A stretch of 64,000 nt of DNA from Escherichia coli (GTDB lineage Bacteria > Pseudomonadota > Gammaproteobacteria > Enterobacterales > Enterobacteriaceae), in NCBI RefSeq assembly GCF_024502345.1, contig NZ_JALDNN010000001.1. One strand, written 5' to 3'. The translations under genes and the position numbers were made by a program. This document shows, one piece after another, positions 2,750-8,247 of this stretch. Within the stretch, counting starts at the first letter, position 1; each line of letters starts with the position of its first letter. The notes beneath the pieces were generated by a model that was not told the origin of the DNA, searched no databases, and saw nothing but the letters and a program-made list of their open reading frames with translations.

Positions 2750-4069
2750 ATGGATATCTGCTCCCGAAACAAGAAATTAACGATTAGAAGACCAGCGATA
2801 CTAGTTGCACTGGCACTTTTACTGTGTAGTTGTAAAAGCACGCCTCCAGAGTCCATGGTGACACCACCAGCAGGTTCAAAGCCACCAGCCACGACGCAAC
2901 AATCGTCACAACCGATGCGTGGCATCTGGCTGGCCACGGTTTCTCGGCTCGACTGGCCTCCGGTTTCCTCGGTTAACATTAGTAACCCCACCAGCCGGGC
3001 CCGTGTACAACAACAGGCGATGATCGACAAACTGGATCATCTGCAACGTCTCGGCATAAACACGGTCTTTTTCCAGGTCAAGCCGGACGGTACCGCCCTG
3101 TGGCCATCGAAAATTTTGCCGTGGTCCGATCTTATGACCGGTAAGATTGGTGAAAATCCGGGTTACGATCCGCTGCAATTTATGCTCGACGAAGCCCACA
3201 AGCGTGGGATGAAAGTACACGCCTGGTTTAACCCCTATCGCGTATCGGTTAATACGAAGCCCGGTACTATCAGGGAACTGAATAGCACTCTGCCTCAACA
3301 ACCGGCGAGCGTCTATGTGCAACACCGCGACTGGATCAGAACGTCTGGCGATCGCTTTGTCCTCGACCCGGGCATCCCTGAGGTTCAGGACTGGATCACA
3401 TCAATAGTCGCAGAAGTGGTTTCCCGCTATCCCGTAGATGGCGTGCAGTTTGACGACTATTTCTATACGGAGTCACCGGGTTCACGGCTAAATGATAACG
3501 AAACGTACCGTAAATACGGAGGCGCATTTGCGTCAAAAGCAGACTGGCGGCGCAACAATACTCAGCAGTTAATTGCAAAGGTATCGCACACCATTAAAAG
3601 CATTAAGCCGGGAGTCGAATTTGGTGTTAGCCCGGCAGGCGTGTGGCGTAACCGATCACACGATCCGCTCGGTTCCGATACCCGAGGCGCGGCAGCCTAT
3701 GACGAATCCTACGCTGACACCCGTCGATGGGTGGAACAAGGATTGCTGGATTACATTGCTCCCCAAATTTACTGGCCGTTCTCACGGAGTGCCGCGCGTT
3801 ATGACGTGTTGGCAAAATGGTGGGCGGATGTCGTTAAACCGACCAGGACCCGCCTGTATATCGGTATCGCCTTCTATAAAGTGGGTGAACCTTCAAAGAT
3901 AGAGCCAGACTGGATGATTAACGGCGGCGTACCGGAACTGAAAAAGCAGCTCGATCTTAACGATGCGGTACCAGAAATTAGCGGCACCATCTTGTTCCGT
4001 GAGGACTATCTGAATAAACCGCAGACTCAACAAGCGGTCAGCTATCTGCAAAGTCGTTGGGGCAGTTAA
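2750..4069 (+). CDS. yddW: Lipoprotein, glycoside-hydrolase-like family (YddW)
   Basis: 439-aa ORF with signal peptide and lipobox (LLLCSCKS); position between gadC and dosC as in K-12. Confidence 0.85.
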   Translation: MDICSRNKKLTIRRPAILVALALLLCSCKSTPPESMVTPPAGSKPPATTQQSSQPMRGIWLATVSRLDWPPVSSVNISNPTSRARVQQQAMIDKLDHLQRLGINTVFFQVKPDGTALWPSKILPWSDLMTGKIGENPGYDPLQFMLDEAHKRGMKVHAWFNPYRVSVNTKPGTIRELNSTLPQQPASVYVQHRDWIRTSGDRFVLDPGIPEVQDWITSIVAEVVSRYPVDGVQFDDYFYTESPGSRLNDNETYRKYGGAFASKADWRRNNTQQLIAKVSHTIKSIKPGVEFGVSPAGVWRNRSHDPLGSDTRGAAAYDESYADTRRWVEQGLLDYIAPQIYWPFSRSAARYDVLAKWWADVVKPTRTRLYIGIAFYKVGEPSKIEPDWMINGGVPELKKQLDLNDAVPEISGTILFREDYLNKPQTQQAVSYLQSRWGS

Positions 4070-4086
4070 ACTCCCATTCTTACTTT

Positions 4087-4121
4087 GTAACAAGCCGGTG
4101 CTTTACCCACTGGCTTGTTAC
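4087..4121 (+). terminator. Putative stem-loop terminator after yddW
   Basis: 10-bp inverted repeat gtaacaagcc/ggcttgttac; weak U-tract, so low confidence. Confidence 0.4.
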
Positions 4122-4440
4122 CCTCTTGAACTATCCCACCAGCAATCATGCTTACTAAAGTCAAATTAACCACGCAATTAACGACACTTAGTTAAATAGC
4201 CATAATCCCCCTAATAAAAATGTATGAATATGAAAAACCATACGATATTCGCAGTCACCGAAAAATAATTACGATGGGCTATACTCTTCTGAAGAACAGT
4301 AGCGTAGATTGAAACTGTCCTAAGTCGCTTATTTCTTTTCAGTATATCTTCATATTTCAGGAGAATATGGTGCAGTTAGTCGATCTCGCACGTTGCGTTT
4401 TGATTCCGTCTGATTTCCCAGCCTTATAAAGGTGTGAATT

Positions 4441-5823
4441 ATGGAGATGTATTTTAAAAGAATGAAAGATGAGTGGACCGGACTTGTCGAACAGGCAGAT
4501 CCGCCCATTCGTGCTAAAGCCGCGGAAATTGCCGTTGCGCATGCTCATTATCTGAGTATTGAGTTTTATCGAATTGTCCGCATCGACCCGCATGCCGAAG
4601 AATTCTTGAGTAATGAACAAGTTGAGCGGCAGTTGAAAAGTGCGATGGAACGCTGGATTATTAACGTGCTTTCTGCCCAGGTTGACGATGTCGAAAGGCT
4701 AATACAAATCCAGCATACCGTCGCGGAAGTGCATGCCCGCATAGGAATTCCGGTAGAAATTGTCGAGATGGGGTTTCGGGTGCTGAAAAAGATCCTCTAT
4801 CCGGTAATCTTCTCTTCGGATTATTCTGCCGCAGAAAAACTTCAGGTCTACCATTTCTCGATTAACAGTATTGATATCGCTATGGAAGTGATGACCCGCG
4901 CGTTTACCTTTAGTGACAGTAGTGCCTCAAAAGAAGATGAAAACTATCGTATCTTCTCGTTACTGGAAAACGCCGAAGAAGAAAAAGAACGGCAAATAGC
5001 CTCAATACTTTCATGGGAAATAGATATCATCTATAAAATCCTGCTGGATTCTGATTTAGGCAGTAGTTTGCCTTTAAGCCAGGCTGATTTTGGCCTGTGG
5101 TTTAACCATAAAGGTCGACATTATTTTAGCGGCATTGCCGAAGTAGGCCATATCTCCCGTCTGATTCAGGATTTCGACGGTATTTTCAATCAAACCATGC
5201 GTAACACCAGGAATTTGAATAACAGAAGTTTGCGGGTGAAATTTTTATTACAGATAAGAAATACTGTATCGCAAATTATTACCTTGCTGCGTGAATTGTT
5301 TGAAGAAGTATCGCGCCACGAAGTCGGTATGGATGTACTGACGAAATTACTTAACCGCCGTTTCCTGCCGACTATCTTCAAACGCGAAATTGCCCATGCC
5401 AACCGGACCGGTACACCGCTGTCAGTGCTGATTATTGACGTTGATAAATTCAAAGAGATCAACGATACGTGGGGCCATAACACTGGCGATGAAATTCTGC
5501 GTAAAGTCTCTCAGGCCTTTTATGACAACGTCCGCAGTAGTGATTATGTTTTCCGCTACGGGGGCGATGAATTTATCATTGTTTTGACTGAAGCTTCTGA
5601 AAACGAAACGTTACGTACCGCAGAACGTATTCGCAGTCGGGTGGAGAAAACCAAACTGAAAGCCGCAAACGGCGAAGATATTGCCCTCTCACTTTCCATC
5701 GGTGCCGCCATGTTTAATGGTCATCCTGACTATGAGCGCCTCATTCAAATAGCCGATGAAGCTCTGTATATCGCCAAAAGACGAGGTAGAAACCGTGTTG
5801 AACTCTGGAAAGCCAGTCTTTAG
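4441..5823 (+). CDS. dosC: Oxygen-sensing diguanylate cyclase (globin-coupled sensor, GGDEF)
   Basis: 460-aa ORF with a GGDEF motif (RYGGDEFII) in the C-terminal half; immediately precedes dosP. Confidence 0.9.
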   Translation: MEMYFKRMKDEWTGLVEQADPPIRAKAAEIAVAHAHYLSIEFYRIVRIDPHAEEFLSNEQVERQLKSAMERWIINVLSAQVDDVERLIQIQHTVAEVHARIGIPVEIVEMGFRVLKKILYPVIFSSDYSAAEKLQVYHFSINSIDIAMEVMTRAFTFSDSSASKEDENYRIFSLLENAEEEKERQIASILSWEIDIIYKILLDSDLGSSLPLSQADFGLWFNHKGRHYFSGIAEVGHISRLIQDFDGIFNQTMRNTRNLNNRSLRVKFLLQIRNTVSQIITLLRELFEEVSRHEVGMDVLTKLLNRRFLPTIFKREIAHANRTGTPLSVLIIDVDKFKEINDTWGHNTGDEILRKVSQAFYDNVRSSDYVFRYGGDEFIIVLTEASENETLRTAERIRSRVEKTKLKAANGEDIALSLSIGAAMFNGHPDYERLIQIADEALYIAKRRGRNRVELWKASL

Positions 5824-5847
5824 ATGCGCCAGGATGCAGAGGTAATC

Positions 5848-8247
5848 ATGAAGCTAACCGATGCGGATAATGCCGCTGATGGCATTTTTTTCCCCGCCCT
5901 TGAGCAAAATATGATGGGTGCGGTGTTAATTAACGAAAATGATGAAGTGATGTTTTTCAACCCCGCCGCAGAGAAGCTCTGGGGATACAAACGTGAAGAA
6001 GTCATTGGCAATAACATTGATATGCTGATTCCGCGGGATTTGCGTCCTGCGCATCCTGAATACATTCGTCACAACCGTGAAGGCGGTAAAGCGCGCGTCG
6101 AGGGGATGAGTCGGGAGCTGCAGCTGGAGAAAAAAGACGGCAGTAAAATCTGGACCCGTTTTGCGCTATCGAAAGTGAGCGCCGAGGGGAAAGTTTATTA
6201 CCTGGCGCTGGTACGGGATGCCAGCGTAGAAATGGCGCAAAAAGAACAGACCCGACAATTGATTATTGCCGTTGACCATCTCGACCGACCGGTGATTGTC
6301 CTCGATCCGGAACGCCATATTGTGCAGTGCAATCGCGCATTTACCGAAATGTTTGGTTACTGCATTAGCGAAGCCAGCGGTATGCAGCCCGATACACTCC
6401 TGAACATTCCTAAATTCCCTGCCGATAACCGCATTCGTTTACAACAGTTGCTATGGAAAACCGCCCGCGATCAGGACGAATTTCTGCTGCTGACGCGCAC
6501 CGGTGAAAAAATCTGGATTAAAGCCTCTATCAGCCCGGTTTATGACGTGCTCGCGCATCTGCAGAACCTGGTAATGACTTTCTCGGATATCACCGAAGAA
6601 CGGCAGATCCGCCAGCTTGAAGGCAATATTCTCGCCGCCATGTGCAGCAGCCCGCCATTTCATGAAATGGGGGAAATCATTTGTCGTAACATCGAATCTG
6701 TTCTCAACGAATCGCATGTTTCGCTGTTCGCACTGCGCAACGGGATGCCGATACACTGGGCGTCATCTTCCCACGGTGCAGAAGTTCAAAATGCGCAAAG
6801 CTGGTCAGCGACCATTCGTCAGCGTGATGGCGCGCCTGCGGGGATCCTGCAAATTAAAACCTCGTCAGGAGCAGAAACCAGCGCCTTTATCGAACGCGTG
6901 GCAGATATCAGCCAGCATATGGCCGCGCTGGCGCTGGAACAGGAAAAAAGCCGTCAGCATATTGAACAACTCATCCAATTTGATCCGATGACCGGTCTGC
7001 CAAATCGCAATAACCTGCACAATTACCTCGATGACCTTGTCGACAAAGCCGTCTCTCCGGTGGTGTATCTCATCGGTGTTGACCATATTCAGGATGTGAT
7101 TGATAGCCTTGGCTATGCGTGGGCCGATCAGGCATTGCTGGAAGTGGTCAATCGCTTTCGTGAAAAACTCAAACCGGATCAGTATCTCTGTCGTATCGAA
7201 GGTACGCAGTTTGTCCTCGTGAGCCTGGAAAACGACGTCAGTAACATTACCCAAATCGCCGATGAGCTACGGAATGTGGTCAGCAAGCCGATAATGATTG
7301 ACGATAAACCCTTCCCGCTTACCTTGAGTATTGGCATCAGCTACGACGTGGGTAAAAACCGCGATTACCTGCTCTCTACTGCTCACAATGCAATGGATTA
7401 TATTCGCAAGAATGGCGGTAACGGCTGGCAGTTCTTCAGCCCGGCGATGAACGAAATGGTAAAAGAGCGTTTGGTTTTAGGCGCAGCGCTGAAAGAAGCG
7501 ATTAGCAATAACCAACTGAAACTGGTTTACCAGCCGCAAATCTTCGCAGAAACGGGTGAACTGTACGGCATCGAAGCCCTTGCTCGCTGGCACGATCCCC
7601 AGCATGGTCATGTGCCCCCTTCACGGTTTATTCCTCTCGCAGAAGAGATTGGTGAAATCGAAAATATTGGGCGCTGGGTCATCGCGGAAGCTTGCCGTCA
7701 GTTAGCAGAATGGCGTAGCCAGAATATTCATATCCCGGCGCTTTCCGTTAACTTGTCGGCACTGCACTTTCGCAGTAATCAACTGCCTAATCAGGTGTCT
7801 GATGCAATGCAAGCCTGGGGTATTGACGGCCACCAGCTGACGGTGGAAATCACGGAAAGCATGATGATGGAACACGATACCGAAATCTTTAAGCGCATTC
7901 AGATCCTGCGTGATATGGGCGTGGGTTTATCGGTAGATGATTTTGGCACGGGCTTTTCCGGATTATCCCGCTTAGTCAGTCTTCCGGTAACGGAAATCAA
8001 AATTGACAAAAGTTTTGTCGATCGTTGTCTGACGGAAAAACGCATCCTTGCCTTACTTGAAGCCATTACCAGCATTGGGCAAAGCCTCAATTTAACCGTC
8101 GTGGCGGAAGGCGTCGAAACCAAAGAGCAATTTGAGATGCTACGCAAGATCCACTGTCGCGTTATTCAGGGATATTTCTTTTCCCGCCCCCTACCCGCCG
8201 AAGAAATTCCAGGCTGGATGAGCAGCGTGTTACCGCTGAAAATCTGA
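5848..8247 (+). CDS. dosP: Oxygen-sensing c-di-GMP phosphodiesterase (haem-PAS, GGDEF-like, EAL)
   Basis: Start taken at the internal ATG giving MKLTDADNAADGIFFPALEQ (799 aa). The track ORF begins 8 codons earlier, directly after the dosC stop. Confidence 0.9.
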   Translation: MKLTDADNAADGIFFPALEQNMMGAVLINENDEVMFFNPAAEKLWGYKREEVIGNNIDMLIPRDLRPAHPEYIRHNREGGKARVEGMSRELQLEKKDGSKIWTRFALSKVSAEGKVYYLALVRDASVEMAQKEQTRQLIIAVDHLDRPVIVLDPERHIVQCNRAFTEMFGYCISEASGMQPDTLLNIPKFPADNRIRLQQLLWKTARDQDEFLLLTRTGEKIWIKASISPVYDVLAHLQNLVMTFSDITEERQIRQLEGNILAAMCSSPPFHEMGEIICRNIESVLNESHVSLFALRNGMPIHWASSSHGAEVQNAQSWSATIRQRDGAPAGILQIKTSSGAETSAFIERVADISQHMAALALEQEKSRQHIEQLIQFDPMTGLPNRNNLHNYLDDLVDKAVSPVVYLIGVDHIQDVIDSLGYAWADQALLEVVNRFREKLKPDQYLCRIEGTQFVLVSLENDVSNITQIADELRNVVSKPIMIDDKPFPLTLSIGISYDVGKNRDYLLSTAHNAMDYIRKNGGNGWQFFSPAMNEMVKERLVLGAALKEAISNNQLKLVYQPQIFAETGELYGIEALARWHDPQHGHVPPSRFIPLAEEIGEIENIGRWVIAEACRQLAEWRSQNIHIPALSVNLSALHFRSNQLPNQVSDAMQAWGIDGHQLTVEITESMMMEHDTEIFKRIQILRDMGVGLSVDDFGTGFSGLSRLVSLPVTEIKIDKSFVDRCLTEKRILALLEAITSIGQSLNLTVVAEGVETKEQFEMLRKIHCRVIQGYFFSRPLPAEEIPGWMSSVLPLKI

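Follow-up and report, generated by a model that had tools for sequence, protein, structure and literature searches.

A conserved initiation site ahead of an unconserved peptide: the yddY allele in the probable dosC-dosP leader of Escherichia coli

We have identified the short open reading frame (ORF) immediately 5' of dosC, in a 64,000-nt stretch of Escherichia coli DNA (hereafter the window), as a common variant allele of yddY, a gene already known from E. coli. The ORF probably serves as a translated upstream ORF (uORF) in the leader of the dosC-dosP (dosCP) mRNA, with action in cis as its most likely mode, and a translated leader element is more likely than a functional protein. Documented as a "small protein", YddY has a peptide that is unconserved even within the species, whereas the ribosome-binding site (RBS) that heads it is conserved genus-wide; the peptide itself is probably evolutionarily unstable and functionless. 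Since the RBS and not the peptide is conserved, yddY is better studied as a cis leader of dosCP than for a protein function.

Identity of the ORF and its allelic forms

The gene call is already known, as yddY has been annotated and experimentally verified in K-12. The locus of the window is the digH-dosC-dosP locus of E. coli/Shigella; it shares 99.1-99.3% identity over 5.5 kb with complete E. coli genomes, and its genes lie on the same strand in the order digH/yddW (2750-4069), the ORF (4367-4429), dosC (4441-5823) and dosP. K-12 MG1655 carries annotated yddY (b4746; 1567178-1567219; 13 aa) at the same spot. The alignment of the two is identical from 58 nt 5' of the ATG to codon 11, after which K-12 yddY has five extra bases (TTTCA) and a stop 37 nt before dosC. 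Past residue 11, the C-terminus reads LIPSDFPAL in the window (20 codons) versus SF in K-12 (13 codons). The window ORF thus fails full-length identity with K-12 YddY and matches residues 1-11 alone; because these residues are the same and the C-terminus is frameshifted, it is an allelic variant that encodes a different protein. Database records list the exact 20-aa peptide as "hypothetical protein [Escherichia coli]" from at least 1000 contigs, and the 20-codon ORF was without RefSeq/PGAP annotation in the non-K-12 genomes examined. Pfam searches gave no match for the 20-aa peptide, for two antisense ORFs (4350-4508 and 4357-4620, minus strand) or for an upstream 30-aa ORF.

The sequence matches exactly the ORF described in the initial annotation, with its Shine-Dalgarno sequence (SD), ATG at 4367, 20 codons and stop 11 nt before the dosC ATG at 4441 (Table 1). 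The SD that had been assigned to dosC itself, aaaggtg, was found at 4428-4434, where it is weak and overlaps the yddY stop. The spacing of the yddY SD, which had been called good, is instead short and suboptimal, with just 3 nt (AAT) between AGGAG and ATG; an in-frame GTG at 4370 lies 6 nt from AGGAG, a more typical spacing. The duplex of the yddY SD with the 3' end of 16S rRNA is stronger than that of 78% of 36 long ORFs in the window, and dosC's own SD reaches -3.9 kcal/mol versus -7.4 kcal/mol for yddY. Among the 1130 plus-strand ATGs of the window, 2.6% score at least as high as the yddY SD-ATG, which by sequence alone is within chance and statistically unremarkable. It is raised above chance by its conservation across E. 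coli genomes and four other Escherichia lineages.

Table 1. Features of the digH-dosC interval in window coordinates; percentages are identities between the window and the four outgroup lineages
Feature	Positions	Strand	Remarks
dosC 4-fold degenerate sites			43-55%; neutral baseline
digH-proximal spacer	4070-4223		49-54%
Conserved promoter and 5' leader block 5' of yddY	4224-4357	+	134 bp; 84-93%
Putative sigma-S-type extended -10, GCTATACT	4278-4285	+	predicted transcription start site (TSS) near 4292
Predicted long-range helix, 5' arm	4325-4359	+	pairs with 4435-4476
SD+ATG+GTG	4358-4372		93-100%
yddY SD core, AGGAG	4359-4363	+	duplex with 16S 3' end, -7.4 kcal/mol; invariant across Escherichia
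yddY, 20-codon allele	4367-4429	+	start ATG 4367-4369; stop TAA 4427-4429
yddY codons 3-9	4373-4393		48-57%, equal to neutral level
Remainder up to dosC	4394-4440		77-87%, gaps skipped
Site of the derived 5-bp deletion (TTTCA/TTTCG gone)	4397-4400	+	frameshift after codon 11
yddY TAA overlapping weak dosC SD (AAAGGTG, 4428-4434)	4427-4434	+	read from sequence
Predicted long-range helix, 3' arm	4435-4476	+	spans dosC AUG and first codons
dosC, diguanylate cyclase DosC	4441-5823	+	window ORF and RefSeq annotation; homologous loci

The initial annotation had stated that neither conservation nor expression evidence was available for the ORF. Both exist, in the comparison of genomes presented here and in published work on SPA-tagged K-12 YddY. 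The K-12 protein was detected via chromosomal SPA tagging (PMC6001520, Table 1 therein) and is among the least abundant of the small proteins compared (bioRxiv 10.1101/511675). Low Mg2+ induces it through a regulatory region upstream that depends on PhoQ; the protein is not associated with the membrane, and neither deletion nor overexpression of yddY gave a phenotype (PMC11429745).

Alleles were typed in a sample of 5426 complete E. coli genomes, approximately 5412 of which carry the locus, using junction-spanning queries. Matches needed to share an exact 28-mer across the indel, and the resulting counts are estimates. The 20-codon junction of the window type was present in 1209 of the 5426 genomes (22%) and the 13-codon form in approximately 3043, divided between TTTCA (1479) and TTTCG (1564) junctions. 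A third type, in 1048 genomes (19%), has a dosC deletion with its breakpoint inside yddY. The 5' breakpoint of this deletion falls after approximately codon 11 of yddY, adjoining the site of the 5-bp indel (locus L003, 4298-4471, and also L091 and L092; window ~4367-4400 onward). In this type dosP is kept, and the intact yddY SD-ATG heads a 57-codon ORF that runs out of frame through the dosC remnant; the exact 57-codon fusion peptide had no match in the protein collection searched. Frequent loss of DosC is already documented (PMC5635171, citing Povolotsky & Hengge 2016). At least 4787 of the ~5412 locus-bearing genomes have an SD-ATG region with essentially no change, and codons 1-11 are identical between the sampled 13- and 20-codon alleles. 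Amino-acid variants within the species comprise C10R (O157) and, in dosC-deleted strains, L7P alone or together with V5A and D6N. The 13-codon alleles also have three synonymous SNPs (GAT/GAC, TGC/TGT and TCA/TCG).

Two single records stood out during this survey. One isolate (L090, NZ_LR536430.1, locus ~280-300) has an IS1 directly after the ATGG of yddY, which parts the leader from dosC. A 398-bp contig assigned to "Oceanospirillum linum" (NZ_MTSD02000211.1, L036) contains a K-12-type yddY and the start of dosC, with a DosC match that covers residues 1-79 at 100% identity; it is almost certainly E. coli contamination of that assembly.

Conservation of the leader and its initiation site

Four other Escherichia lineages, found by searching species-representative genomes with DosC, served as outgroups. 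All four retain caggagaatATG at approximately 80 nt 5' of dosC, where it heads an ORF of only 2-3 codons: MVP-stop in "E. coli" SCPM-O-B-8794 (L011), MVL-stop in E. whittamii (L012), MVR-stop in "E. coli" E69 (L013) and MM-stop in E. albertii (L019), the last possibly of a single codon if the second ATG is used. The stop of this mini-ORF is 69-71 nt from the dosC ATG. The position of codon 4 holds TAA in all four outgroups versus TTA in E. coli, from which we conclude that the E. coli ORF arose by stop-loss. All four also contain GTTGCGTTTCG..., and K-12, O157, other E. coli and the outgroups alike carry GTTGCGTTTC(G/A)..., relative to which the window is 5 bp shorter. Because the five bases are found in every outgroup, they are ancestral, and the 20-codon form of the window is a derived deletion. 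A homologous SD-ATG 5' of dosC was not found in the Citrobacter, Kluyvera, Phytobacter, Enterobacter and Trabulsiella examined.

Selection was assessed by comparing the window with the four outgroups region by region, with the 4-fold degenerate sites of dosC as the neutral baseline (Table 1). The leader and the SD-ATG are well above this baseline and yddY codons 3-9 are at the neutral level, from which we conclude that purifying selection acts on the leader and the initiation site and not on the YddY peptide. Among the outgroups themselves, the segment following the start is moderately conserved (62-86% identity); it lies after their stop, and so this is not conservation of a peptide. The check on conservation proposed in the initial annotation thus gave a divided answer: the SD-ATG is conserved, whereas the peptide is frameshifted into forms of 13, 20 and 57 codons and is stopped at codon 3-4 in the sister species.

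We propose that the selected element is the leader together with the yddY RBS (AGGAG-N3-AUG-GUG) at the 3' margin of a strongly conserved promoter/5'-UTR block. On the E. coli branch, the change from TAA to TTA opened a mini-ORF of 2-3 codons to 13 codons, and in the lineage of the window the further 5-bp deletion extended it to 20 codons, setting its stop atop the weak dosC SD. Ribosome loading or translation in the leader would then influence, in cis, either the fate of the dosCP mRNA or initiation at dosC.

The SD-ATG forms the 3' edge of a uniformly conserved block, and for this reason its conservation is inseparable from that of its neighbors. This leaves room for a different account, rather unlikely in our judgment, under which translation is incidental: CAGGAGAAUAUG would be kept as a site for CsrA or another GGA-type binder (with the GGA in the dosC start, AUGGAGAUG), as leader RNA structure or as a DNA operator, and ribosomes would merely exploit an SD-like sequence next to an AUG. 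The whole 134-bp block is as conserved as the SD-ATG, so that the RBS is not singled out. yddV/dosC mRNA is raised in a csrA51 mutant (PMC4844966), GGA occurs both at the yddY SD (4360-4362) and at dosC codon 2 (4443-4445), the ORF of the sister species is non-productive, and the abundance of YddY is very low, all of which would fit incidental translation. Against this, conservation stops right after ATG-GTG, as expected of an initiation site, direct binding of CsrA to the dosC leader was undocumented in the literature searched, and the leader matched no Rfam family. Presentation of the GGA in a loop is inconsistent between the predicted folds of the two alleles.

In the predicted RNA structure, the sequence immediately 5' of the SD pairs with the region around the dosC start. 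The resulting long-range helix occurs in the minimum free energy structure of each allele (-47.8 and -48.2 kcal/mol, with z of -2.45 and -2.0) and is retained in the consensus fold. As predicted, the dosC AUG lies in a 14-bp stem and yddY inside the enclosed loop. Such a helix would favor selection for structure over selection for an initiation site, but it is without covariation support: no compensatory changes were seen in it, and the substitutions in its 5' arm (3 compatible versus 6 breaking) approximate the neutral expectation. The helix burying the dosC AUG is a purely thermodynamic prediction.

More improbable still is that YddY is a young, E. coli-specific small protein acting in trans, for example on DosC/DosP or in Mg2+ stress, with an active N-terminal segment of 11 residues shared by its 13- and 20-residue isoforms. 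The tagged protein is detectable and induced by low Mg2+, the first 11 codons are the same in the sampled 13- and 20-codon alleles, and the three SNPs in the 13-codon alleles are synonymous, each of which such a protein would explain. However, the early stop at codon 3-4 in the sister species leaves the peptide without a homologue outside E. coli, and codons 3-9 diverge from the sister species at the neutral rate. Within E. coli, the C-terminus is frameshifted in 22% of genomes and replaced by unrelated sequence in 19%, and the variants V5A, D6N, L7P and C10R occur. The very low abundance, the non-membrane location, the absence of a phenotype upon deletion or overexpression and the lack of a Pfam match also speak against it.

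Leader transcription and possible coupling to dosC

The sequence GCTATACT within the conserved block is presumably a sigma-S-type extended -10 element, judging by its match to the sigma-S -10 consensus. Its CTATACT is invariant in 8 of 8 aligned Escherichia sequences, and yddY and dosC would be co-transcribed from a promoter of this type near 4278-4285. The TSS predicted near 4292 corresponds to about 1567294 on the minus strand of K-12. Literature searches, of incomplete coverage, returned no usable mapped TSS for dosC/yddV, operon map or sigma-S ChIP data. The equivalent region of K-12 drives PhoQ-dependent reporter activity that is induced by low Mg2+ (PMC11429745). Direct control by PhoP was considered and is unsupported: the PhoP box (T/G)GTTTA-N5-(T/G)GTTTA had 2 sites at ≤3 mismatches in 4070-4445 versus 1.7 expected, approximately the chance level, and both sites fall in the non-conserved part. 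Mg2+ starvation is reported to stabilize RpoS via PhoQP and IraM (PMC10948607). We favor an indirect PhoQP-IraM-RpoS route onto the sigma-S-like -10; the reported PhoQ dependence would then be compatible with a promoter of the sigma-S type.

A sigma-70 scan found one weak promoter-like site (4178-4206), located in the non-conserved spacer and degraded in K-12. K-12 is without 12 bp of the digH-yddY spacer (window ~4174-4185) that other E. coli keep, and this segment overlaps the sole sigma-70-like match.

The interval 4060-4480 contains no intrinsic-terminator-like site, hence none between yddY and dosC. Classical attenuation, in which stalling at specific codons of a yddY leader peptide would switch a terminator and antiterminator for dosCP, was rejected as very improbable despite the presence of a short translated leader ORF near a regulated gene, since no terminator-like hairpin was found in 4060-4480, there is no run of regulatory codons, neither the length nor the sequence of the ORF is conserved, and no Rfam leader family was matched.

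Coupling of dosC to translation of yddY was examined by modeling. For the dosC initiation region the predicted opening cost is 16.0 kcal/mol; ranked among 35 long ORFs of the window, this is near the 86th percentile, elevated but not exceptional. A ribosome positioned at the yddY start was rejected as an "opener" of dosC, its modeled effect being weak and inconsistent (ddG of -0.9 to +3.9 kcal/mol with the start forced single-stranded). A modeled ribosome terminating at the yddY stop of the 20-codon allele has a footprint that ends 2 nt before the dosC AUG, and it lowers the remaining cost of opening dosC from 16.0 to 7.5 kcal/mol (about 8.6 lower). This effect is confined to the 20-codon allele and was absent from the 13-codon and 2-3-codon forms in the model. 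In the same way, a stop that overlaps the downstream SD, 11 nt from the ATG, is the geometry expected for coupling and is found in the 20-codon allele, and not in the 13-codon allele (37 nt) or the sister species (69-71 nt).

Translational coupling to dosC is therefore geometrically plausible for the 20-codon allele only, in which the terminating ribosome would sit on the dosC initiation region and unwind it. As the stops of the 13-codon and 2-3-codon forms are too far from dosC (37 and 69-71 nt), coupling cannot explain the genus-wide conservation. The initial annotation had offered two readings, a small protein or a translationally coupled leader. The first agrees poorly with the unconserved peptide; the second is plausible for the 20-codon allele only. 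The identity with yddY and the pattern of conservation are shown by the sequences, and translation in K-12 by the literature; any effect of yddY on dosC, and the coupling itself, are inferred.

The fullest version of our proposal is correspondingly tentative. It is possible that a genus-wide leader mini-ORF or ribosome-loading site controls dosCP in cis, that YddY is a de novo by-product remodeled by the 5-bp and dosC deletions, and that the 20-codon allele is newly coupled. If this is true, natural E. coli lineages would differ in how they translate an O2-sensing c-di-GMP module. The three common alleles (13, 20 and 57 codons) constitute a natural experiment on the position of a uORF stop versus expression of a c-di-GMP operon, and the comparative picture should be of modest use to the small-protein field.

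Comparison with known leader ORFs and observations on neighboring sequence

In the leader smORFs pssL-pssA, yoaL-yoaE, baxL-baxA and argL-argF, start-codon mutants raise or lower downstream expression (Weaver et al. 2019). yddY resembles these in being short and translated, in having its own SD and in lying, probably within the 5' UTR, immediately 5' of a larger gene. It differs in that those smORFs overlap the downstream coding sequence, whereas yddY ends 11 nt (window) or 37 nt (K-12) before dosC. In Sinorhizobium meliloti, an upstream SD and start codon close to the main RBS can couple to it or occlude it (Dietz et al. 2026). The stop of 20-codon yddY overlaps the main (dosC) SD; however, the organism is a different one, and the yddY RBS is 74 nt 5' of the dosC ATG, a distance that precludes direct occlusion. 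A third likeness is to Start-Stops (Meydan et al. 2019), as the SD-ATG of the sister Escherichia heads a non-productive ORF of 2-3 codons. An ORF of that length cannot give a functional protein, which by analogy suggests a regulatory or neutralized initiation site. This is a resemblance only: Start-Stops are intragenic and have no codon between start and stop, whereas the yddY site lies in a probable 5' leader and heads 20 codons in the window, 2-3 in the sister species and 13-57 in E. coli.

Several further features of the interval were recorded. Just 3' of the digH stop is a long hairpin with a perfect stem (4085-4125, plus strand; GTAACAAGCCGGTG...CACTGGCTTGTTAC), which is probably the digH terminator; it went uncalled by the terminator scan because no T-run follows it. 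Rfam assigned no family, its single hit being a sub-threshold chance match (rli61, E 0.33) over this hairpin, and no tandem repeats were found. Within the conserved block are two mini-ORFs without an SD, MNMKNHTIFAVTEK and MGYTLLKNSSVD (window 4224-4268 and 4274-4312, plus strand), which remain open in every Escherichia lineage examined, the second overlapping the putative -10. Both probably reflect conservation of the DNA and not translation.

The four outgroups have TAA-N3-CTGTCC in common right after the mini-ORF. It echoes ACTGTCC at window 4313-4319, approximately 55 nt 5' of the yddY ATG, and the downstream copy of CTGTCC was lost in E. coli, where the ORF lengthened. CTGTCC may be a repeated protein- or RNA-binding motif. 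In E. albertii NBRC 107761 (L019, locus 3001-4056), the DosC match stops at residue 352 of 460, which suggests that dosC is truncated or disrupted there. Four Enterobacter spp. (L020, L021, L022 and L024) have, at approximately 100 nt 5' of dosC (locus ~2897-3024), a non-homologous ORF that spans 27-42 codons and reads M[SC]Y[HY]SFL.KKA...DFAIV. It is without an obvious SD, and its end falls within -11 to +24 of the dosC start; either an independent leader ORF for dosC or mere DNA conservation could account for it.

At the other end of dosC, the stop is followed without a gap by an ATG at 5824 (TAGATG; window 5820-5850, plus strand), which opens an 807-codon dosP frame. The RefSeq start of dosP is 8 codons (MKLTDADN) 3' of this ATG, and dosC and dosP may be more tightly coupled than annotated.
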